Assembly: GCA_964016885.1 (NCBI GenBank)
Contig: OZ024742.1
Span: 51,398,001 to 51,462,000, forward strand
Direction: 5' to 3'
Length of the DNA: 64,000 nt
Origin: Eledone cirrhosa
Taxonomy: Eukaryota
The notes beneath the pieces were generated by a model. That model worked only from the letters and a program-made list of their open reading frames with translations. It was not told the DNA's origin and made no database searches. Each line of letters opens with the position of its first letter. The first letter of the stretch is position 1. Below are positions 3,909 through 63,963 of the stretch, one piece after another. Made by a program: the position numbers and the translations under genes.

Positions 3909-4106
3909 ATAATATATAAGATCAAAAGATGGTTAAAGGAGTTCCATGTATTTTATTATGCGCATTTCAAAAACAAACATCATCATGCAATAATATTTGT
4001 GTTTATCTGATGAAAACACAAATATTATTGCATGATGATGTTTGTTTTTGAAATGCGCATAATAAAATACATGGAACTCCTTTAACCATCTTTTGATCTT
4101 ATATAT

Positions 4107-33967: not shown

Positions 33968-35359
33968 TTATATGCATTTAAAAAAAGAAAAAGTCGTTTT
34001 CAAACGATGGTTACAGTATAGAGAACGTTCAATTTTGCTGTTCAAAAGTTTGTTTACCGACGTTAAAATGCAGTATATCTCTAAATTGCATAACTTGCAG
34101 AATCGATGATTTTGCTGATATGCAGGCGCAGCTGCAATAATTTGCCAATCAAGGGTGAACGCTTGATTGTTCCTCCGAAGCTGCCAGGCTTTATCGGCGA
34201 GGGTTGTTACGGAGCGCATTTTCTCGTGCCTGATCGAAGATCGATGTTGGTATAGGCGAGCCTTGAAAGAAGTTGCGGTACATCCGACGTAATACCATTT
34301 GTTGGTTCCGGAATTTATTGTACATCGGTAGACAATATTGCGTGCTAGGCACTGGTTATTCAGTGGGCACGTACCTGGTTTGGTGCAGTTACAATTATTT
34401 TTATGTTTTGCAGTAGAATCCTGGATAGTTTGGTGGGGTTGTGGTTGCGTGTTAGTGCGTTGTATGTTGCTATGCTGGTGCGCTGAGTCATTAGGGATGT
34501 ACTTATTCAGTATTGCTGAGTTGAGTTTTCTAATTAGTTGTTCTATGTTAGGTGTAGTGGAGTATGAGAGTCTAATGGTGCGCGAGTTAAAGATTTTATA
34601 GTATTTATGTGAAGTTGTAAAGTGTTTATTGATTAGTGTATAGAATTGTGAGATAATCTTAGTGCTAATAGAAGAATTGTACACGGGGTTATACTATATG
34701 TACTCTCTACGTCTGACTCTATTTGCTGGTTTGCACCTATTAGTATGCCTATTGGTGTGTGTGTGTGGTGCAATACTAGTTCGACTTAGATGTGTTTTAT
34801 TCATAGTACTTATGTGGTTATCGTCTAGATATTCTATTTTCTCGCAGTAGCCAGCTTTTCTAAGTGCGTCATTATAATATTCAGCATGCTCGTTGAAGGT
34901 CTGCAAATTAGACGACAGTCGGGAGATCCTTATGGATATATTTTTAGGGATAGATTTAATAATGGAATGAGGATGGTTCGATTTTACATTAACGTACTTA
35001 AGATTTTCATTAAGTTTGTGAAATGGCTCTATATTACCGTTATTAAGGTTGAAGGTGACATCCAAGAAGTTGACCACCTTAAGATTGTGTTCGAAGGTAA
35101 TATTAAGCCCTAGTTCTAAGAAAAGTTTCCTAATGTTTTTACGTCGCCTTTCTAGGTTTTGTTTGTTCATATTCTTGACTAATAGAAGTGTATCGTCGCG
35201 GTATATTCCGCCGTGGAGGTCCGTAAATTCGCTCTGGAGTCTATGGGCTATATAGATCCCAACCAAATCCGTGACCTCCGCCGAATCATTAGAACCCATC
35301 GTAATGTCGAATTCCGAGGGTCTATCCCTGCGGACCCAATAACTATTTTCAAAGTGCAT
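33968..35359 (-). pseudogene. PLE RT/GIY-YIG ORF, interrupted near 34690
   Basis: ORFs 34694-35359 and 33968-34684, separated by a stop (probably W to TAG). Confidence 0.85.
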
Positions 35360-40720: not shown

Positions 40721-40754
<34 letters not shown>

Positions 40755-40850
40755 GTAATTGTTTCTACTTTAGGCACAAGGGCAGCAATTACCCAGTGCA
40801 TTACTGGTACTTTATTTTATCGACCCCGTAAGGATGAAAGGCAAAGTCAA
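40755..40850 (-). mobile_element. SINE 3' fragment
   Basis: Reverse complement of the SINE core and tail. Confidence 0.75.
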
Positions 40851-40861
40851 TATATTATATA

Positions 40862-41040
40862 TAGTAATAATAATAAGTTAGAAGTCTAAAATCCAAAGAG
40901 AGCTCGATAAAGATAAATATATAAGAACCGTAGAGAAAATATTTATTAAAATAACAGAAGATCCCGTTTCAGAAAATCCCGTTAAGGGTGAATGCAGCGA
41001 TTCTTTGCTTAAACTGTAATCTTTTATTTTAATAAATGTT
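40862..41040. repeat. Rearranged fragment of the mini-PLE/HHR family at 42444-43905
   Basis: Shares cagaagatcccg...gcagcgattctttgcttaaact and the inverted tail. Confidence 0.75.
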
Positions 41041-42443
41041 GTATAATATTAACAACACCCACCCCTCCCCCAACCACACACCAGTATATATATATATATA
41101 CACTAACTCACACTATTCAAACATCCTACTACAACCACTAACCCCCACGCACACCATCCACATTCGACCACCCCACCACTAATAATACAAACCATCCCCA
41201 CCCATCTTCCCCCTTACAACGCACACACGAACACACCCACCCTACCACACACGCACTCATACCCAAACACGCACACACACATCTGTATTTTACACTCACT
41301 CATATGGCACCCAGCACCTTCTCTTTTTCCCCCCTCTGTACTACCAAAACACTCCCACACACAGACGCATCCTACTAACACCGCCACTACTATTCACACA
41401 ACCCCCCTACACAGACCACCATATCTCCTTCAACTTTCACACTGACCCACCTCCTATCCTGTCCACCGCACATCAGCACACACATACATACATTCCTCCA
41501 CACCTGCTACTACCTCTGACACTGACTACCCTTTCATTCCTCTTCTCCTCCCTTCTCCTTCTCTCGCACACTTCGCCCTGCCTTCTCCGCCCCCTACATT
41601 GACCATCTTGACCACTTACTGTTGCGCGCGCTTCACAACGTTCTACTTCCTCCTCACCCATGCCACGGATCCTACACCGTGGGTCACACTCTCAGGATAT
41701 CTACGAGATAATACCCGGATTTTCACCATCTGTCCCCACATTCACCGAGAAACCAATCAGGAACACACACAAATAAACACTTACATCATTTTCGCACACA
41801 CGGAACCATATTATCCCCACGTATCCCCACCACACAAAAACAAACACACATATGTGCGTATCCTCACATACACCGACTCTGCCTCCAGACTCCACATGCT
41901 GCCTCTCCCCTATTCCTTCCGACCCATCTCCATCCACACACACATACTTACACCCCACCCATGTACACACAGGTCTTCTAAACACCCGAGCATGGAAACC
42001 CGTTCTCCCCAAACTCTCGCATGCACACACACGTGCACCTACACCCCCCATCCCTCCGCCCTCAACACTCGGACTCCTAATTTCCTTGCACCTCTCACTC
42101 CCCCTCTATACACCCAACACCTCACCCACATGCCTCACACCCTTACACCACTTGTTTTCAACTTATTTTCCCACACCTGTTATTTTTATTTTTTTTATTT
42201 TCCCTTCATTGTTTTTCCTGTTATTTTAATGTGTTTCCACTATTCCCCCCTCACACCCTCTCGGAAATCCTCTCCTTCCCACCATTCTCCTGATTAAAGT
42301 CTGATGCCTGAAACATCGTCCGTCACCCCACTCCAACTCTCAAGCGTTAACCTATTACCTAACACCTTTTGTAACTGTACTCATTGTTGTTATTTACTTT
42401 TCCAATTCTTTGTTATGCATGCATATATATATATATATATATA

Positions 42444-43509
42444 TTAAAATAACAGATTAAAGTTTAAGCAAAGATTCGCTGCTTTCACCCTTAACGAGAT
42501 TTTCTGAAACTAACAAAGTCAATCTGTGAACGCAGAAGTGAATATTTCAAAAAAAGTTGCAACCGGAGGAAGACAGGAAGACGATACTTTGGTCCGTGGA
42601 AACGTTCCCTGGCAAGCACGTGGGCCGCATTTAGTCATGGTCAAAAGACCATCATCACGGTACAAACAACCGCCCACGTTGGGGAATTCTTCCTTGTTAG
42701 AGAAAAGAAGGCTGTTTTCTGTATCAGTAGTTTTAGGTATGTTTTGCTGCTTGGTACGGGAATGTTCTTTGTAGAAATATCCAGATGTTGTTACTTTCCT
42801 CCTGTTGCAACGTTTCTTGAAATATTCACTTCTGCGTTCACAGATTCACTTTGTTAGTTTCAGAAGATTCCGTTAAGGGTGAAAGCAGCGATTCTTTGCT
42901 TAAGCTTTAATCTGTTATTTTAATAAATATTTGCTCTACGGTTCTTATATATTTGATATATATTTATCCTTATCGAGCCCTCTCTGGATTTTAGTCTTCA
43001 AATTTATTATTATTACTATTTGGCTCCTTCGGTTGAGCACTCTATTGACTTATATTCATCATGCAGAAACAACATCTGAATATTTCTACAAAGAACCTTC
43101 CCGTACCAAGCAGGAAAACATACCTAAAACTGATACAGAAAACAGCCTTCTTTTCTCTATCAAGGAAGAATACCCCAACCTGGGCGGTGGTTTGTACCGT
43201 GATGATGGTCTTTTGACCATGACTAAGTGCGGCCCACTTGCTTGCCAGGGAACGTTTCCACGAACGAAAGTATCGTCTTCCTGTCGTCCTCCGGTTGCAA
43301 CGTTTTTTGAAATATTCACTTCTGCGATCACAGATTGACTTTGTTAGTTTCAGAAGATCCCGTTAAGGGTGAAAGCAGCGATTCTTTGCTTAAACTTTTA
43401 TCTGTTATTTTAATAAATATTTGCTCTACGGTTCTTATTATATTTGATATATATTTATCCTTATCGAGCCCTCTTTGGATTTTAATCTTCAAATTTATTA
43501 TTATTACTA

Positions 43510-43550
<41 letters not shown>

Positions 43551-43629
43551 TAATGTGTGTGTGTGTGTGTGTATTTATATATATGTGAGGGTGTCTGTGG
43601 GCGTGCGTGATTATATTTATATATAGTCG

Positions 43630-43686
<57 letters not shown>

Positions 43687-43901
43687 ATAATAATAAATTT
43701 GAAGACTAAAATCCAAAGAGGGCTCGATCAGGATAAATATATATCAAATATATAAGAACCGAAGAGCAAATATTTATTAAAATAACAGATTAAAAGTTTA
43801 AGCAAAGAATCGCTGCTTTCACCCTTTGTTAGTTTCAGAAGATCCCGTTAAGGGTGAAAGCAGCGATTCTTTGCTTAAACTTTAATCTGTTATTTTAATA
43901 A

Positions 43902-43905
<4 letters not shown>
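42444..43905. mobile_element. Cluster of ~490-bp non-autonomous PLE-derived units in tandem and inverted orientation
   Basis: Period 490 (42861 to 43351); unit encodes YPNLGGGLYRDDGL (PLE RT motif); an HHR in each unit. Confidence 0.8.
43346..43396 (+). ncRNA. Type I HHR, CAGAAGA core variant (other copies 42856-42906 +, 43831-43881 +, 42461-42511 -)
   Basis: AGUUU-CAGAAGA-UCCC guuaa GGGU-GAAA-GCA gcgauucuu UGC-UU-AAACU; distal helix I ACAGAU/AUCUGU. Confidence 0.7.
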
Positions 43906-44340: not shown

Positions 44341-44530
44341 GGCGGTGAATTGGCAGTATCGGTAGAGGGTGGACGCCATGCTTTCTACCATAATTACGTC
44401 CTTTTACGGTCTGAGTTCAAATCCCGCCAAGGTTAACTTTGCCTCTCATCCTTACGGGGTCGATAAAATAAAGTACCAGTAATGTACTGGGTATTTTTGT
44501 TGGCTTTGTGCCTAAAGTAGAAACAATTAT
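44341..44530 (+). mobile_element. tRNA-derived SINE copy
   Basis: Same family as 12787. Confidence 0.8.
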
Positions 44531-45646: not shown

Positions 45647-47791
45647 TAGGAATGTATCTATCTGATTAATAAACAAATCCGCGCATTTCACATTTCTTTA
45701 CATCACAATGCCGTTGATTATCAAAATAGCCTCCCAAAGATTGTATTTTGACCTTACTAACAAGCTTTTTTATCATAAAAGGACACATTATTCAGTGTAC
45801 AGACGAATTACTATAAACTGTGAACAACTTACATCTAGGTCACTACAATGTGTCCTTTTATACAGTAGTCCACTGCCCAATAGGTGCATGTATATCATAG
45901 GCATCATCTTCAAACACTTATTCAGATGATCGACAAATAGATTCAAAACGGCTAAAACGTGATTTAAAAAAACAATTTTCGCTAATCCTGTTGCTAAAAA
46001 ATTATAAACTATCAAAACATTACACTAGATATGATTATTTTAAACTTAGAAAATGGTATAGATCACATCAAACTTAAGAATAATAATAATGATTTAAATT
46101 CTGTTTCACACTGTCGCAAACTAGGGAACTTAAAGCCAATAAAAATGACAACAACAAAAACAACAACAATAATAAGGAGGTTATAGTTCACTTGAAGCAT
46201 TGTGTAATGAGGTATAAACGTTTGAATATGTATAATAAAGCCAAAACAATGCAGGTATGGACATAGAAAAAAGAATGCAATTGCAAAAGATATTGTTGAC
46301 AAATCGTCTTTTACCTTAGATTTATTTAAATGTCTTTAATTTTTGAGATAATATCTCTTCTTCAGAGTGAAATAAAGGTCTCATACCAGCGTTCTAAATA
46401 TATTGCCAAGCCATGCTGACAGGAAATAGTATAGAGTATCTGTTCTATCTTTAATGTCAAAGAGTTAAAATTAGGTGGATAAAGAGTAGTCTCCCTTTAA
46501 AAGAGGTTTGTTTAGGGTTGTTGTTTTTTCTATATATACATTCCTGTTTAAGTGTGTGGGAGAATGCATGAAGGTGTAAGTATGTGAGTGTGTGTGTGTG
46601 AGTGTGAGAAGATAAGTCTATTCGTAAATGTGGGGGATAAGTGTTATCTGGTGTTAGAACTGGTTTTGTGTGTGTATGTGTGAGAGAGAATAAGTGGAGG
46701 TGTAAGCGTGTGTGTGTGTGCTTGTGTGTGGGGGGTGGGGATAAATATGGGGTTAGAAGCCCTATCAGGTTATAAATTGGGTGTTGAGTTCTAGTCTATT
46801 ATTGATTGGTGGTTGTGTTTTATCTATAATTAGTGCTTCCTTAATTCTAAGATTGCCGAGGTTTCTTTCCTTAGTTTCTATCCTAACTGTTATGGTTTTG
46901 TCGGTGTTTTTGCATTTAACTACATGTTTCTTAAACGAGGAAGCGTTAGTATTGAGGTGTTCTTTTATTCTTATGTGGAGTGGTCTGGTGGTGCTACCTA
47001 CGTAGAAGTTGTTGCATTTGTCACACTCTAGTCTGTATACGACGTAAGCCTGGTGGCATAGGTCTGTGTCGTTGATGGGGCAGTTGGCTAGTCTACAGCA
47101 GTTGTCATGTCTGGTGGAGTGTCTTTTGGTTAGCTGTTCGCGTAGAGAAGGACCTGAGTGGGCCAGTTGGATATCTAGTCCCTCTCGTCTGATGGCTCTG
47201 CGGATGGCTGTTGTTGTTTCTTCACTGAAGTGTGGGAGCTTCAGGAATCAAGTGTTAGTGCCTAGGAATGTATCTATCTGATTAATAAACAAATCCGCGC
47301 ATTTCACATTTCTTTACATCACAATGCCGTTGATTATCAAAATAGCCTCCCAAAGATTGTATTTTGACCTTACTAACAAGCTTTTTTATCATAAAAGGAC
47401 ACATTATTCAGTGTACAGACGAATTACTATAAACTGTGAACAACTTACATCTAGGTCACTACAATGTGTCCTTTTATACAGTAGTCCACTGCCCAATAGG
47501 TGCATGTATATCATAGGCATCATCTTCAAACACTTATTCAGATGATCGACAAATAGATTCAAAACGGCTAAAACGTGATTTAAAAAAACAATTTTCGCTA
47601 ATCCTGTTGCTAAAAAATTATAAACTATCAAAACATTACACTAGATATGATTATTTTAAACTTAGAAAATGGTATAGATCACATCAAACTTAAGAATAAT
47701 AATAATGATTTAAATTCTGTTTCACACTGTCGCAAACTAGGGAACTTAAAGCCAATAAAAATGACAACAACAAAAACAACAACAATAATAA
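45647..47791. repeat. 529-bp direct duplication (45647-46175 and 47263-47791) flanking a PLE fragment
   Basis: Offset 1616; duplicated ORF calls 45708 and 47324 are identical. Confidence 0.9.
46176..47262 (-). mobile_element. 5'-truncated PLE copy (GIY-YIG plus pLTR), apparently identical to 49769-50855
   Basis: Offset 3593; duplicated ORF calls are identical. Confidence 0.9.
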
Positions 47792-48042
47792 TAATTGTTT
47801 CTACTTTTGGCACAAGGACAGCAATTACCCAGTGCATTACTGGTACATTATTTTATTAACAACAATAATAATAATGGTGGGTTCTGATTTAGGCACAAAG
47901 CCAACAATTTTGGGAGAAAGAGCATTACAGGTACTTTATTTTATCGACCGCGTAAGGATGAAAGGCAAAGCTAATCTTGGCAGGATTTGAACTCAGAATA
48001 TGCCGCTAAGCCTATTGTCCGACGCCCAACTGATTCTGCAAT
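47792..48042 (-). mobile_element. SINE fragments (reverse orientation)
   Basis: Reverse complements of tail, core and B-box (ggatttgaactcag). Confidence 0.7.
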
Positions 48043-53060: not shown

Positions 53061-54287
53061 GATATATCTACCAAAAATATACGGTAGTGTCCAATCCCTA
53101 TGAAGAACTCAATGTAATCCAAATATCATGAAAAATAAAGATGTATTCAAAAATTTTTTCGACGAATATCACAGGAAAACAGAGTAAAGATAAATTAATA
53201 AAAACAATGAATAAAAACAAAGAAACAGTTTAACTTATTCATATATAGGTGCTACTTCTAACCAATTTAAAGTAAGATTTAATATCCCAAAACATAGTTT
53301 TTAAAATGCCACATTAGCTAATATAACATACTTGGCTGAAATAATTAATAATTATAGAAAAAAGAATATCGATTATAACCAGACCTGAAGTGTGCTCAAA
53401 AGAGCCACCCCTTATCAAAATAAAAGATATGAGTGTAGATTATGTTCCCAGGAATGTTTTGAAATAATGAAATCTAAGGTTATCCTATTTAAATAAGCGA
53501 CAAGAATTAATTATATCGTGCAATCATAGAATTAGAAGAACTTTCAAATATTATAAATCTAATTAATATACACCTTACACTTATATTTTACAAGCTATTA
53601 TAATTAGTTTTTTAAATTTTTAAATTAGTTAACCTATAATTAGTATTTTACTACTGAGAACTTCATAATTTTATTTCCCTTTTACAGTTCTCTTTTCCTA
53701 AAATTAATACCTATATGTATACATATAAACTATTTTAATTTCCTGTTAAGAATCTAAATTCCTTGACTATATAAGTTTTTTATTTCTCACTAATTTTTTT
53801 TCCTTCGTTTTTAACAACATTCTTTAATAACATCTAACTATTATACATCACATCTATATGAATTAATATAAATGTATCCCTATAAGTATACCTATCAATT
53901 AAATTAATTTAATTCCTTGTTATACATCTAAATTCCTTGTGTTTTAAATAAGATTGGTATTTCTCACTAACACATTTACCCTAAAATGTTATTCTCCTTC
54001 TATTTTAACATTAGCATTATTCTTTAATAACATCAAATTTTCGTGTACCTTTCACCGACTTGACCTCTTTTCATCCCCAAAGTAATCTTTTCATTCAAAG
54101 TATTCTTCCATTCAAACCTGAAGTCTACATTGCTCTACCCCTAAATTAAATTTCTACTACTACTATTCTATCAACTTGACCACTCACTAATTTTCTATTG
54201 GTCAATTCAAAACCTGTTCCCAAACTGACCTATTTTATTACATTTTTGGGGGTTTTTTTCAATAAACAAATATTATTTCTGAAGACA

Positions 54288-54470
54288 GCGGTGAATTGGC
54301 AGTATCGGTAGAGGTTCGGACATGCTTTCCAGCATAGTTACGTCCCTTTATGATCTGAGTTCAAATCCCGCCGTGGTTAACTTTGCCTTTCATCCATACG
54401 GGGTGGATAAAATAAAGTACCAGTAATGTACTGTGTAATTGCTGGCCTTGTGCCAAAAGTAGAAACAATT
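54288..54470 (+). mobile_element. SINE inserted in a pLTR HHR with 16-18 bp target-site duplication
   Basis: attatttctgaagacagc at 54272-54289 and 54468-54485. Confidence 0.85.
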
Positions 54471-54611
54471 ATTTCTGAAGACAGCAGATATATGTGTAAG
54501 TATGTATATTCCCTCTGATAGTTTGTAAATTTTACATAAATTTTTACTTAGATCTATATGATAAACATACCAACACACACATATAGATCCTAGAAACGAT
54601 CGTAAAATGAT
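54468..54611 (+). ncRNA. Long-helix-II type I HHR (upstream pLTR copy)
   Basis: AUUAUUU-CUGAAGA-...-GAAA-CGAUCG-UA-AAAUGAU. Confidence 0.75.
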
Positions 54612-54905
54612 GAATTTTTGAATATAAGGAACTGTTTCTATATTTTTTTCATTGTTTTTTATTAATTTATCTTGACTCTGTTTTCCTGTGATTTTCATCG
54701 AAAACATTTTTGAATACATCTCTTTTCATGATATTTGGATTACATTGAGTTCTTCATACGGATTTGACACTACCGTATAGTTTTGGTAGATTTATCTACA
54801 TACTTTGCTCCTAATTTTAGACAGGTATTCATATTTTAATATATATTTTTTATATTTATATATATAATTTTATAACTCCCTATATATATAGTTGAGCTCT
54901 CTTTC

Positions 54906-57405
54906 TTGGAAAAACAATACTTGGGAACTTCTCTAAAGAATATACCAATATCTTCTAAGGATGAATTCTTACTTCTTATGATACAAAAAACCAACCAATT
55001 CATCAAAATGGTCAGATGGAGGGCCTACCACTTTGATAAAAAAACAAAATGTACTGATAAGAAATATTTATATGATTTCACTACATATAAGAACCCACTA
55101 CACAACTCCTTGCTTGAAAACTTCGAGAAAGACCTTTTTAACTTTAACAAACACCTCAAATTTAAGAAATATAAATCTAATTTTCATAAGGATCTTGATT
55201 CTACACTATTGGATCTAAAAAAATCTAACAAAATCCACGTCCACTCTGACAAACTGGAAATCTGTACCACATGGATATTGATAATTACAATGAGTTCATT
55301 TATAAAGAACTCAGGAAAAATTATAAAAAAACAAATAATGTGACACTTACCAATATCAACAACAAAACATACAACATAGTAAATAAACTCAATATTTAAG
55401 ATAGAACTGAACCTTTGGCACTGAAAAAAAAAAACACTTTAACCTGAAAGATCACAAATCTAATTTTAACTCTAATCCTTCTATAAGACTTATATGCCCT
55501 TCCAAATCTGACATTGACATCATTAGAAACATTTTTTTAGATAGAGTCATCCCACAATTAAGAAAACGTGTTAATTTACCACTCTGGGAAAACACATCCC
55601 AGGTAATTAACTGGTTTACTAATATTAGAATTAAATCATCTACTTCATTTCTACAATTCGATATAAATGCTTATTATCGCTCTATATCACCCATACTCCT
55701 GAACAAAGCCTTGATATTTGCCAAAAATAGATCAAACTTAACTATGGATGACATTAATATTATCACGCACGCTAGACAAACCCTACTGGAATTTCAGAAG
55801 GAATACTGGACAAGAAATACATATAGTAATCTATTCGACATTACTATGGGCTCTAGTGATTCTGCCCAGATTACCCATCTTGTGGGCCTCTTTCATCTAT
55901 TTAACATAAATGCTTCTTTTCCCCACCTTAAAGGTGGTTTATATCGTGATGACTATCCTCTTCTTTCCACTAACCTTAGCCTATCAGAAATTGAAAAAAA
56001 TAAAAAAAACTTATTAGAACTTTCCTCAAAGACTACTATAATCTCATTATTACATTTGAAAACACCAGTAAAGTAGTTAATTTCCTTGATATAACTTTAG
56101 ACATATCTACGGGTATCTACCAAACTTACCATACACCTAATCAAAACTTACATTACATACACTCACAATCTAATCACCCTAGATCTATCCTTAAAAACCT
56201 AGCATATAATATCTCACTCAAAATTTATAACCTTTCATCTAACCAGGTTGTATTCGATAAAAATGCGACCTTTTATAACGAAGCTTTAGATAGAAGCTGC
56301 CACGAAAGTTGATTAGTCTATATACCTTGTACCAATAATACTTCAAACATACAACCCAATATTACCAACAAACACCAAATGAAAAACAGACACCTAAATG
56401 CCACTCACATTATACCCAAAAATTCCAACTTAAAACTTAATTTCTCTACCTCTTCTCACATACAATCTAATAACTTTCAAAAAAATATTCATCCTAATAC
56501 TCCTATATACGTTAATAACATTACTAACAAATTCCTAATAATCAGACTAAAACACCTAAATCAGTTAATCTAACTAAACATATGTATAATAAATTCACTA
56601 ATACTAACTCTCTTAGTAAACATCCTGATACATCGTATAACTATAAAAAACAACATCGAAACCGTAATAGACGAGTTACTTGGTATAATGCTCCATTTAA
56701 TCTATAAATTAAAGATAATATCTCTAAAACATTTTTTACTATCCTAGAGAAAAACTTCCTGCCAAGCCATAAATACCATCACATTTTAAATAGATCAACG
56801 GTCAAATTTTCCTACTCCACTACCGAAAATATACAACAAAATATAAGTGCCTACAATGCATATAAATGTAAACAAACCATGAATATACCACCAACACATC
56901 AAACTAACCATAATACTAAAATAAACCGCAACAAAGCACCATCTCATTTGACTAACTCCCCTGATATAATATTCACGAATGGTTGTAACTGTAGAAACAA
57001 AGCAAATTGCCCACTAAAAGGAAATTGTCTGATTAATAACATAGTATATAAATGTAAAATTAGCACTAAGGACTCAACTTATTCATATATAGGAGCTACT
57101 TCTAACCAATTTAAAGTAAGGTTTAATACCCACAAACATAGTTTTTAAAATGCCGCATTAGCTAATACAACATCCTTGGCAGAAATAATTAATAATTATA
57201 GAAAAAAGAATATCGATTATAACCTGGCCTGGAGTGTTCTCAAAAGGGCCACCCCTTATCAAAATAACAGATATGAGTGTAGATTATGTTCCCAAGAATT
57301 TTTTGAAATAATGAAATCTAAGGATATCCTATTAATTAAGCGACAATAATTAATTATATCGTGCAATCATAGAATTAGAAGAACTTTCAAATATTATAAA
57401 CCTAA
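54906..57405 (+). pseudogene. PLE ORF, multiply frameshifted
   Basis: ORF fragments 54906, 55711, 56379 and 56879 in domain order. Confidence 0.8.
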
Positions 57406-58121
57406 TTAATATACACCTTACACTTTTATTTTACAAATTATTATAATTAGTTTTTTAAATTTTTAATTTAGTTAACCTATAATTAGTATTTTACTGCTGA
57501 GAACTTCATAATTTTATTTAACCTTTACAGCTCTATTTTCCTAAAATTAATACCTATAAGTATACATATAAACTATTTTAATTTCCTGTTATGAATCTAA
57601 ATTCCTTGTTGTCTATATACGTTTCATATTTCTCACTAATACATTTAACCAAAAGAAAAAAATGTTTCCATCGTTTTTAGCAACATTATTTAATAACATC
57701 TAACTCTTATTTATCACATCTATATGAATTAATATAAATGTATCCCTATAAGTATACCTATCAATTAAATTAATTTAATTTCTTGTTATAGATCTAAATT
57801 CCTTGTGTTTTAAATAAGATTGTTATTTCTCACTAACACATTTACCCTAAAATGTTATTCTCCTTCGATTTTAACATTAGCATTATTATTTCATAACATA
57901 AAATTTTCGTCTACCTTTCACCGGCTTGACCTCTTTTCATTCAAAGTATTCTTTCCATTCAAAACTGAAGTCTACATTCCTCTACACTTAAATTAAATTT
58001 CTACTATTACTATTCTATCAACTTGACCACTCACTACTTTTCTATTGGTCAATTCAAAACCTGTTCCCAAACTGACCTATTATATTAAATTTGTGTAGTT
58101 TTTTTTTCCAATAAACAAAAA

Positions 58122-58468: not shown

Positions 58469-58524
58469 CCATTTACCAGTGGTTTCTTAAAAGCAAAAGG
58501 TTTTGCTTTCAATCCTCAGAATGA
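58469..58524 (-). ncRNA. Type I HHR with intact core
   Basis: Minus: UCAUU-CUGAGGA-UUGAAAGCAAAA CC UUUUGCUUUUAA-GAAA-CC ACU GG-UA-AAUGG. Confidence 0.85.
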
Positions 58525-60366: not shown

Positions 60367-62173
60367 TCAAGGCGGTTGATTTATCGTAGGAGTGTCAATC
60401 CAGTTACAGATCAGATGCGATTTCAGATGAGGACAGCATCTGAAGATCTCAGTCTTAGAGTTAAGGCAAGCGGAAGTGTCTCTCAAGTTTAGCAAAATCC
60501 TATACTTTTCTGTGGTACACAAAGAACAATTCTTTGTGCCCCTTTGGTACTCCCTCGAATGGTCTAATATAGACCAATCAATAGAGTACGGGATATTACT
60601 ATCCTTGAGATCCCATACCTTACTTGCGAGGGCCGTTGATGTTCGTTTATCTGAGTGTTTAAAAGAAGCGACATGTGAGTAAAATCTGGTTTTAAACCTG
60701 TCCTGGGTCATACCGACATATCGCTCGCTTCTGGCTGGCTGGTTGTTGATAACTGGCGTTATTTTAGCCTCATAAACGACAGATTTTGTTTTACATTTAC
60801 CCTGCAATGGGCATTCATCCGGCTTCCTGCAACTGCATCCTGGATTTATCCTCGTACGGTTTGAACTGGTGATTTTGGATTTCATGGATGGACAACAAGA
60901 GTAGCTGATCTTAACTACATTCCTATTAAAAATCTTATAATATCTATGAATAGGAGGAAAATGTTTGTCTAATAGTTCAAGGAATTTCCTTCCTACATTA
61001 GTTTTGACATTTAGAGAGAAGGGGGGTGTGAACCAAATAATCTTCCTTTTCCTGTTATTATGGTTAGTTTTAGGGGGGGGGAATAGGTAAATAAGAAATA
61101 TTTTCTGTAAAACCGCTGTTCTTAAGGGCTTTATTATAATAAGGGGCGGCTTTATTAAAAATGTCTATAGACGAAGATAAAGTAGAAATCCTACGGCTAA
61201 TGTTAGGAATAAGATTATTAAAAACTATAGGGGGATGGCAAGACTCTTTGTGTATATACCTAAGATTTTCATTAGGTTTATGATAGGGTTTAAAAGAGGC
61301 AGTAAGTAGATCAAGATTAATATCAAGAAAGTTAGCATTAGTAAGGTTCGTATCTATAGTAATTTTAAGGTTAAGATTAGCAAAGGTACTAATTAAATCT
61401 TTACGGAATTTATCAAGATTATGGCCATTGGTGGTATGAGAAACTGCTAATCCGTCATCACGGTATAAACCGATATTATGGGACGGAAATTTCTCTTTGA
61501 GTGTGTGGAGAAGGAATAATCCTACTAAGTCGCACACATCCGCACTGTCATAAGAACCCATTGCAACATCGAAAGAGTTTTCAGGGTTTGACTTTTTAAC
61601 CCAAATCTTATCATTAGTAAAAAGTAAAGTTTTTCTGGCATGAAAGATAATGTCCTCTTCTAATTTGGAGATATTAATGAAGGGTCTTGCAAAATCTAAG
61701 GCTTTAGTTAATAAGGAAACGGTAATAGAAGGGTAAAAATCGACAATATCAAATTGCGTAAATCTACACTTATTTTTACCTTGTATATTATTGAACCAAG
61801 AAATAACAGAGGAAGTATTTAGCCACTGTGAAAGGACAGTGTTAGTTCTAATTTGGATAATTATTTTTCTTAAGATTTTCTTACTAGCAAGGCCAACCTC
61901 GGATTTAGCCGGGTTAATCAGTCTACAACTAGGTCGATTAGTAAAGTCCAATTTATGGTCTTTAAGGGTAATATATGCTTTACGCTTAGCTAAGCTTTCA
62001 ATCCGGTTATCTATTTGTAAAGAACTAGCTAGTTCTTTAGCTTCTTTATTGATAGTATTGTAGCTATTATTATTAGTTAATTGATATTTATTGGTAATAC
62101 TATTAGTTAAAAGTTGGTTATACAAATTACTATTAACTTCAAAGAGGTTTTTGGTTTTATCAGAAAAAACCAA
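60367..62173 (-). pseudogene. PLE RT/GIY-YIG ORF (Naiad-like, tentative), 5'-truncated, +1 frameshift in the G-run at ~61073
   Basis: Mirror of 62206-63963; G9 here versus C8 in the plus copy. Confidence 0.9.
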
Positions 62174-62205
62174 AAACCAAAAACCTCTTTGAAGTTAATA
62201 GTAAT

Positions 62206-63963
62206 TTGTATAACCAACTTTTAACTAATAGTATTACCAATAAATATCAATTAACTAATAATAATAGCTACAATACTATCAATAAAGAAGCTAAAGAACT
62301 AGCTAGTTCTTTACAAATAGATAACCGGATTGAAAGCTTAGCTAAGCGTAAAGCATATATTACCCTTAAAGACCATAAATTGGACTTTACTAATCGACCT
62401 AGTTGTAGACTGATTAACCCGGCTAAATCCGAGGTTGGCCTTGCTAGTAAGAAAATCTTAAGAAAAATAATTATCCAAATTAGAACTAACACTGTCCTTT
62501 CACAGTGGCTAAATACTTCCTCTGTTATTTCTTGGTTCAATAATATACAAGGTAAAAATAAGTGTAGATTTACGCAATTTGATATTGTCGATTTTTACCC
62601 TTCTATTACCGTTTCCTTATTAACTAAAGCCTTAGATTTTGCAAGACCCTTCATTAATATCTCCAAATTAGAAGAGGACATTATCTTTCATGCCAGAAAA
62701 ACTTTACTTTTTACTAATGATAAGATTTGGGTTAAAAAGTCAAACCCTGAAAACTCTTTCGATGTTGCAATGGGTTCTTATGACAGTGCGGATGTGTGCG
62801 ACTTAGTAGGATTATTCCTTCTCCACACACTCAAAGAGAAATTTCCGTCCCATAATATCGGTTTATACCGTGATGACGGATTAGCAGTTTCTCATACCAC
62901 CAATGGCCATAATCTTGATAAATTCCGTAAAGATTTAATTAGTACCTTTGCTAATCTTAACCTTAAAATTACTATAGATACGAACCTTACTAATGCTAAC
63001 TTTCTTGATATTAATCTTGATCTACTTACTGCCTCTTTTAAACCCTATCATAAACCTAATGAAAATCTTAGGTATATACACAAAGAGTCTTGCCATCCCC
63101 CTATAGTTTTTAATAATCTTATTCCTAACATTAGCCGTAGGATTTCTACTTTATCTTCGTCTATAGACATTTTTAATAAAGCCGCCCCTTATTATAATAA
63201 AGCCCTTAAGAACAGCGGTTTTACAGAAAATATTTCTTATTTACCTATTCCCCCCCCTAAAACTAACCATAATAACAGGAAAAGGAAGATTATTTGGTTC
63301 ACACCCCCCTTCTCTCTAAATGTCAAAACTAATGTAGGAAGGAAATTCCTTGAACTATTAGACAAACATTTTCCTCCTATTCATAGATATTATAAGATTT
63401 TTAATAGGAATGTAGTTAAGATCAGCTACTCTTGTTGTCCATCCATGAAATCCAAAATCACCAGTTCAAACCGTACGAGGATAAATCCAGGATGCAGTTG
63501 CAGGAAGCCGGATGAATGCCCATTGCAGGGTAAATGTAAAACAAAATCTGTCGTTTATGAGGCTAAAATAACGCCAGTTATCAACAACCAGCCAGCCAGA
63601 AGCGAGCGATATGTCGGTATGACCCAGGACAGGTTTAAAACCAGATTTTACTCACATGTCGCTTCTTTTAAACACTCAGATAAACGAACATCAACGGCCC
63701 TCGCAAGTAAGGTATGGGATCTCAAGGATAGTAATATCCCGTACTCTATTGATTGGTCTATATTAGACCATTCGAGGGAGTACCAAAGGGGCACAAAGAA
63801 TTGTTCTTTGTGTACCACAGAAAAGTATAGGATTTTGCTAAACTTGAGAGACACTTCCGCTTGCCTTAACTCTAAGACTGAGATCTTCAGATGCTGTCCT
63901 CATCTGAAATCGCATCTGATCTGTAACTGGATTGACACTCCTACGATAAATCAACCGCCTTGA
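62206..63963 (+). CDS. PLE reverse transcriptase plus GIY-YIG endonuclease, open frame but 5'-truncated
   Basis: FDIVDFYPSI, FDVAMGSYDSA, GLYRDDGL, CSCRKPDECPLQGKC, SVVY..RYVG, R..SH, CSLCTTEK, CPH. Confidence 0.9.
   Translation: MYNQLLTNSITNKYQLTNNNSYNTINKEAKELASSLQIDNRIESLAKRKAYITLKDHKLDFTNRPSCRLINPAKSEVGLASKKILRKIIIQIRTNTVLSQWLNTSSVISWFNNIQGKNKCRFTQFDIVDFYPSITVSLLTKALDFARPFINISKLEEDIIFHARKTLLFTNDKIWVKKSNPENSFDVAMGSYDSADVCDLVGLFLLHTLKEKFPSHNIGLYRDDGLAVSHTTNGHNLDKFRKDLISTFANLNLKITIDTNLTNANFLDINLDLLTASFKPYHKPNENLRYIHKESCHPPIVFNNLIPNISRRISTLSSSIDIFNKAAPYYNKALKNSGFTENISYLPIPPPKTNHNNRKRKIIWFTPPFSLNVKTNVGRKFLELLDKHFPPIHRYYKIFNRNVVKISYSCCPSMKSKITSSNRTRINPGCSCRKPDECPLQGKCKTKSVVYEAKITPVINNQPARSERYVGMTQDRFKTRFYSHVASFKHSDKRTSTALASKVWDLKDSNIPYSIDWSILDHSREYQRGTKNCSLCTTEKYRILLNLRDTSACLNSKTEIFRCCPHLKSHLICNWIDTPTINQPP

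Follow-up and report, generated by a model that had tools for sequence, protein, structure and literature searches.

Retrozymes have already been proposed to be pLTR-derived parasites of PLEs (10.64898/2026.07.22.740005; PMC7229834; reviewed in PMC6765202), and the parts of this literature drawn on here base the PLE origin on co-occurrence and pLTR similarity (10.64898/2026.07.22.740005). Non-autonomous deleted derivatives are likewise known, among them the R2 SIDEs (PMC3414825) and the Chlamys non-autonomous elements. As the template of PLEs, circles have been proposed (PMC4209133), and uncut RNA was found to serve in vitro (PMC11167929). In the sections of these papers considered here, PLE hammerheads are often weak (PMC4209133), and their cleavage is dispensable for insertion in vitro (PMC11167929).

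In a 64,000-nucleotide stretch of Eledone cirrhosa DNA (the window), the initial annotation had singled out a short unit as a possible link between PLEs and retrozymes. The locus, 42437-43510, resembles the metazoan non-LTR retrozymes, as described in the portions used (PMC7229834; 10.64898/2026.07.22.740005), in its size range, its head-to-tail units with type I-like motifs, its pLTR ancestry, and the proposed mobilization by PLEs. It differs from them (PMC7229834) in being a single locus with one full unit, coding remnants, and a non-canonical core, known from DNA alone. With one full unit between two motifs whose cores are both non-canonical, and with one forward and one reverse match for each junction rather than many copies, 42437-43510 is not itself a retrozyme. 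The suggested link nonetheless gains support from the sibling minis described below, although it was already in print (10.64898/2026.07.22.740005, in the part covered). With these minis, the PLE origin of retrozymes becomes testable, and so does, with defined sequences, the question of whether a circle or uncut RNA serves as the PLE template.

A deleted PLE copy and its parent family

The parental PLE was found and is abundant. Its monomer measures 3.3 kb in the fetched genomic copies, and its 713-codon frame, whole in three of the four loci checked, carries NIP, RW[KR], DKT, YRDD, CxCX5C, a GIY-like motif, CxxC, and CxH in that order (RW[KR] at 41 as RWR, DKT at 119, YRDD at 350, CxCX5C at 568, IVY..YIG at 587, CxxC at 666, and CxH at 694). 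There is a single ORF, with the RT followed by a C-terminal GIY-YIG EN, and insertion is into (TA)n as a partial tandem plus an inverted copy. Assigned by its motifs, the parent is a Hydra-clade PLE. It has in common with the C-terminal EN+ PLEs of that clade, as far as the relevant part of PMC8557442 describes them, the motif set, the (TA)n target, and the tandem with an inverted 5'-truncated copy. However, those elements are "generally <3 kb" with a tail of 30-40 nt, compared to 3.3 kb and 89 nt here, and their canonical hammerheads are universal (PMC8557442), whereas the parent core is non-canonical in 10,499 of 10,565 matches. Atlas neighbours of the parent protein lay at 0.95-0.99, with HTH_animal/GIY-YIG/RVT_1 on some members; Pfam returned 0 matches for three parent protein pieces, and a PDB sequence search returned 0.

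In the 3.0-Gb genome, we counted 10,565 exact matches of the pLTR motif, 698 exact matches of the ORF start, and 2,096 matches at <=2 mismatches of an undeleted RT-region 30-mer. A 713-codon stop-free frame was present in 15 of the 100 protein matches among those listed; together with the whole ORF in three of the four checked loci, this makes a helper protein acting in trans plausible. In the 3' UTR of the parent (L067, r2819-3093), there is also a diverged 138-bp tandem duplication (~80%), located just 5' of the right-hand breakpoint window of the minis.

Placed on the parent (r coordinates are positions in genomic copy L069), the mini-unit consists of r1-128, r1027-1126, and r3086-3353 (Table 1). 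The annotated mini-PLE of ~490 bp is thus indeed an internally deleted copy of the 3.3-kb PLE, in which the ORF start, 100 bp of RT, and the pLTR are joined at two mapped junctions, and a pLTR-like tail does follow the RT remnant. Junction J1, at 43145/43146, is blunt, without microhomology, with ~0.9 kb lost and the reading frame broken; J2 has a 4-nt microhomology at 43242-43245, with ~1.96 kb lost. Both are repeated exactly in both arms. The forward stretch has a period of 490 bp (42797/43287), and the inverted copy spans 359 bp (42437-42795) at 93.6% identity. The short tandem and inverted units of the initial annotation are real in period and in inverted arm, but they form no array: the locus comprises one full forward unit plus a partial pLTR, and one inverted arm. 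The pLTR of the inverted arm terminates at r3264, the short fixed end of the parent family, and that of the forward arm at r3353, the long fixed end; (TA)n adjoins both. Related pieces had also been announced close by, and the one near 40862-41040 was recovered as a pLTR-only piece that is likely a separate and older insertion. The pLTR-only piece downstream is likely separate from 42437-43510 as well.

Table 1. Features of the 42437-43510 locus and neighbouring pLTR pieces
Feature	Position	Strand	Remark
Inverted arm, pLTR part (r3086-3264)	42437..42615	-	reference is genomic copy L069
Inverted arm, RT fragment, 100 bp (r1027-1126), YRDD inside	42612..42711	-	
Inverted arm, ORF start (r45-128), KNIPVPSSKTYLK, 5'-truncated	42712..42795	-	
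Forward arm, upstream pLTR (r3130-3353), 5'-truncated; hammerhead-like core 42861	42796..43019	+	
Forward arm, 5' leader and ORF start, ATG 43061	43021..43145	+	
Forward arm, RT fragment, 100 bp, with YRDD	43146..43245	+	
Forward arm, 3' pLTR (r3086-3353)	43242..43510	+	
Type I hammerhead-like motif	43346..43396	+	descriptor search
pLTR-only two-armed piece (r3208-3353 inverted, r3183-3264 forward)	43681..43905	.	
pLTR-only two-armed piece, more diverged	40861..41040	.	

The RT YRDD motif is retained: LLFSIKEE..GLYRDDGLLTMTKCGP genuinely derives from the RT, with 96-98% identity to family copies. The translation quoted in the initial annotation is present in the sequence, but its second half alone is real coding sequence; its supposed N-terminal NIP ("KQENIPK") is an out-of-frame coincidence. 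The true N-terminal motif, KN[L/I]PVPS.KTYLK, is read from ATG 43061, in a frame that stops after 51 codons. This is also the frame that corresponds, in the window, to the ORF of family copies, which begins MQKQHLNISTKN(I/M)P. The ORF start does abut the YRDD piece as had been proposed, but the frame of ATG 43061 differs from the YRDD frame, which has no Met before YRDD, so the fusion is out of frame. With just a 51-codon frame from an ATG and a Met-less YRDD frame, the mini-unit is non-coding in the sense applied to retrozymes, and its retention of YRDD is without functional meaning. The unit is best explained as a product with no useful coding capacity and no descendants.

A hammerhead ribozyme had been reported as retained too. 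What we found is a three-helix hammerhead-like motif (helix I of 5 bp, CAGAAGA core, helix II of 3 bp, GAAA, helix III of 4-5 bp), with cleavage predicted after 43391 (CUU); none of 1000 dinucleotide-shuffled versions of the pLTR did as well. However, the core is CAGAAGA, not CUGANGA, and it is non-canonical family-wide; at the foot of helix II, a U-U takes the place of the G10.1-C11.1 pair, and the triplet is CUU. At -5.0 kcal/mol, the hammerhead fold lies 3.8 above the minimum-energy fold (-8.8 kcal/mol) and hence is not the preferred fold, and in the inverted arm (42506-42500, minus strand) an extra G8A change breaks the core further. Single-strand folding of six motif windows gave z about 0. 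Rfam had no hammerhead match within the window at E<=0.1, a weak negative, since the canonical motifs at 1163-2093 escaped it as well.

Of the 10,565 pLTR motif matches, 10,499 have A at core position 4 and just 66 another base; thus, the core change is ancestral to the family expansion. No canonical hammerhead was present in parent copy L066, and no precedent for a U4A hammerhead core was found in the openly available literature searched. More than 10,000 pLTR copies with a non-canonical core fit the view that cleavage is dispensable. Furthermore, the predicted cut lies upstream of both fixed insertion ends and coincides with none of the mini junctions; the hammerhead-like motif did not create the mini junctions. 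At L182 and L183, motif pairs on opposite strands have in common a rare A-to-T at core position 4, in agreement with one template per insertion.

Copy number and sibling minis

According to the initial annotation, the unit is now amplifying at retrozyme size. A 490-bp retrozyme-like family in the course of amplification, with YRDD retained, would account for the size, the tandem period, and the hammerhead-like motif in each pLTR, but we regard it as exceedingly improbable. The J1 and J2 patterns each had one forward and one reverse match in 3.0 Gb, all at 42437-43510 (control, 2,096), and no second locus has the same deletion structure; by the criterion that the initial annotation itself set, current amplification is refuted for this assembly. 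By arithmetic, a 30-mer at 3% decay keeps <=2 mismatches ~94% of the time, so an amplified family would have been detected. In DNA searches, other matches span single pieces only, with 40 scored from among 3,542 candidates in one search and 40 from among 2,640 in another. Four contig runs from one study contained one exact 96-letter record over J1, which, with 30 letters on its short side, fell one below the bridging threshold and was not counted. Moreover, the two arms diverge from the family majority at 13/490 (2.7%) and 14/356 (3.9%) positions, compared to a family mean of 2.4%, which puts their decay at or above the family level; YRDD is out of frame, and the non-canonical core is worse in the inverted arm. 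The 42437-43510 locus is a one-off decayed single-locus fossil.

The two arms differ by 6.4%, and their mutations are nearly independent. They have in common one family polymorphism and one private substitution, q79; q79 T occurred in 0 of the first 100 among the 698 family matches, and the chance expectation for such sharing is ~0.1. Palindromic arms can undergo conversion, and deletions in one arm could in principle have been followed by gene conversion or local inverted duplication after insertion. Such decay is very unlikely as the source of the structure, given the divergence and near independence of the arms, their ends at two family-fixed sites, and the repetition of the pattern at six other loci.

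Minis of ~350 bp occur at at least 41 other loci, with breakpoints in the same two narrow windows. A genome-wide pattern with gaps of 15-45 nt recovered 50 arms at 41 loci besides 42437-43510, and gaps of 46-76 nt gave 11 further matches. A sample without selection was formed by the first 100 ORF-start matches in the list of 698; all lie on contig C1, and 30 were covered over 1.5 kb and 70 over 4 kb. Here, 21 arms were minis, jumping from r107-123 to r3067-3118; other large deletions were present in 8 arms, and 71 had no jump to the 3' end within the stretch examined. One class, mini-A, made up 9 of the 21. With mini-A counted once, both breakpoints fell within the windows in 12 of 20 deletion loci, compared to 0.002-0.017 expected per event under a uniform-breakpoint null with truncation bias; the windows were drawn after data inspection, and the genome-wide gap patterns favour short gaps. 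Right ends cluster at r3104-3108 (28/41), and the outer breaks of 42437-43510 (r128 and r3086) fall within the windows of the sibling minis or on their margin. Mean decay was 1.5% for minis, 1.8% for long copies, and 2.5% for 42437-43510; minis are about the same age as long copies.

The 41 loci displayed 31 junction kinds, 26 of them singletons (34 classes and 29 singletons when scripted, as point mutations split classes). Within loci, however varied the kinds, each of the seven with multiple junctions had the same junction throughout, one L167 pass being shorter by 1 nt: the junction was identical between both arms at six loci and occurred three times within one arm at L167. The tandem passes of L167 have no private change in common, a weak test against later tandem duplication, as multiple passes were seen only in L167-L169 and few mutations occur there. 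Five junction kinds recurred, over 15 loci, and each spans differing parental haplotypes (in the commonest, three of five loci share a haplotype), which indicates that junctions form repeatedly. Junctions show 0-3-nt microhomologies and short inserts, and in one mini the ORF-start piece is re-duplicated at the junction, resembling RT jumping. Locus-specific mini-PLE junctions had no precedent in the openly available literature searched; this family pattern of locus-barcoded junctions is the new result.

Two other sources of the junctions were rejected: splicing, given that the junctions are heterogeneous and not GT-AG, and the landing of a pLTR in an older copy, which would have left ORF rather than the observed (TA)n on the right. 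Mini-A, with junction r111/r3096 and 135 matches (L254-L297), was rejected as an amplified retrozyme, being single-armed and riding inside a larger repeat: an r3150 start lies behind one common foreign flank in nearly all of 29 loci, 20 of the 30 fetched stretches have a downstream flank in common with 16-19 others, and an opposite arm within 8 kb was found in 0 of 14 longer stretches. The larger host repeat is non-coding and built of diverged ~420-bp subunits, in one to three tandem passes. Locus L116 has a mini arm at the short fixed end and two mini-A diagnostic bases, yet another junction.

A common template and the origin of the joins

Counted over the eight commonest values, the pLTRs of the mini loci have their 3' end at r3352-3353 in 60 cases, at r3262-3264 in 37, and elsewhere in 7. 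The two fixed ends fit two internal RT start sites with both strands extended. Rare variants were common to opposite arms in 16 of 119 cases, compared to 1.1 across loci (44 pairs; maximum of 4 in 200 shuffles), and at common polymorphisms opposite arms agreed in 139 of 152 comparisons. As the sharing of rare variants is far above the cross-locus level, opposite arms derive from one template or source. Locus-specific junctions thus serve as molecular barcodes, which show that both arms of an insertion have one template. In vitro, the PAc Poseidon element (PMC11167929) is like the parent in its two internal RT starts around the tail, the extension of both strands, and its AT-rich targets; it is unlike it in belonging to another clade and in RT starts inside the ORF, and the portion of that work covered here includes no ORF-skipping products.

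J1, J2, and the captured RT fragment are exact in both arms of 42437-43510, a repetition hardly to be expected from independent RT jumps, so that the join would have been in the template. Judged from sequence, there is an even chance that the locus was copied from an RNA with its pieces already joined, most likely a short circle. A PLE RNA fragment running from the pLTR ~80 nt into the ORF, its termini near r3105 and r110 determined by where transcription starts, by protein protection, or by a combination of the two, would be joined end to end into a circle, the join thereby pre-existing in the plus-strand template; at 42437-43510, an extra 100-nt ORF fragment would have been joined in. PLE protein acting in trans would then prime cDNA at two internal sites, at both ends of the cut in (TA)n, and synthesis could pass the circle junction more than once. 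For PAc Poseidon, of another PLE clade, the part of PMC11167929 used here likewise places a minimal RNA near the pLTR/ORF junction and finds ribozyme cleavage unnecessary, as proposed here.

More broadly, and more tentatively, the family may continually shed short pLTR/ORF-start RNA circles, joined without a ribozyme and copied by its own protein from both break ends. If so, the genome records single RNA-circularization events, nascent retrozymes at birth, and 42437-43510, with its captured RT fragment in both arms, would be the clearest single sign of a join in the template. Circle-derived minis would then represent a route for the birth of ribozyme-bearing parasitic repeats. The preprint cited above (10.64898/2026.07.22.740005), in the part covered, has retrozymes born through local DNA amplification of inserted terminal sequence, whereas the minis point to an ORF-skipping join at the RNA or RT level.

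Each arm of 42437-43510 crosses the junctions just once, so this locus does not discriminate between a circle, a lost master, and RT jumping. In RT template jumping, the enzyme, on a linear RNA, would reach the 5' end near r3105 and jump to a 3' end near r110; at 42437-43510 the jump would pass via a loose 100-nt ORF fragment, with the second arm recopied or the jump repeated. R2 RT switches templates in vivo (PMC3414825, in the part seen), and the 0-3-nt microhomologies, the short inserts, and the re-duplicated piece at one junction are in line with jumping. We nonetheless hold it to be rather doubtful, because both arms run in one sense as seen from their primers, each thus needing a plus-strand template, and because the jump would have to be repeated exactly to give identical junctions, blunt or with inserts, in the two arms and in three passes.

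The structure of 42437-43510 is explained just as well by a linear pLTR-body-pLTR transcript from a genomic master with the deletions as by a joined RNA, and the private q79 in both arms slightly favours such a master. In this scenario, DNA-level deletions would have generated short SIDE-like masters, transcribed from an upstream pLTR, moved once or a few times, and later lost or else missing from this assembly. It accounts for the identical junctions and for q79, short units are over-represented among arms reaching the ORF start, and SIDEs are known for R2 (PMC3414825); as described in the sections used, R2 SIDEs resemble minis in retaining the ribozyme and cis ends, with the ORF gone and the enzyme in trans. 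SIDEs, however, are lineages from DNA joins, whereas most minis occur once each, and their breakpoints recur and cluster. Dozens of independent masters would be required, both ends in narrow windows (null, 0.002-0.017) and almost none with a visible parent; the same junction occurs on differing haplotypes; and 42437-43510 would need two deletions with its outer ends both inside the windows. DNA masters thus appear unlikely, and we retain the pre-joined RNA as the preferred reading.

Other repeats in the window

Other Hydra-like PLE relics, with 31-46% amino-acid identity to the parent, are located at 33980-35359, 53239-57412, and 60427-63903, the last arranged back-to-back as a pair. A canonical type I hammerhead at 58519 on the minus strand (CTGAGGA, long helix II, GTA) stands ~1.9 kb 3' of a minus-strand PLE relic, to which it may belong. 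At 994-2294, a 310-bp tandem of 4.2 copies, 99% alike, carries a canonical CTGATGA hammerhead per copy, also on the minus strand. The C/A-rich element at 41060-42410 includes a degenerate hammerhead-like stretch at ~42290-42325, and its 3' end has no second copy within the window. A SINE-like dispersed repeat is abundant, with about ten copies in the window (e.g., 40752-40850, 44410-44529, and 47788-47997). The 300-bp direct repeat at 45647-45946 and 47263-47562 (100% identity, 1,616 bp apart) represents either a recent duplication or an assembly artefact. Near-perfect palindromic, MITE-like hairpins are present at 3948-4070 and 62120-62211.
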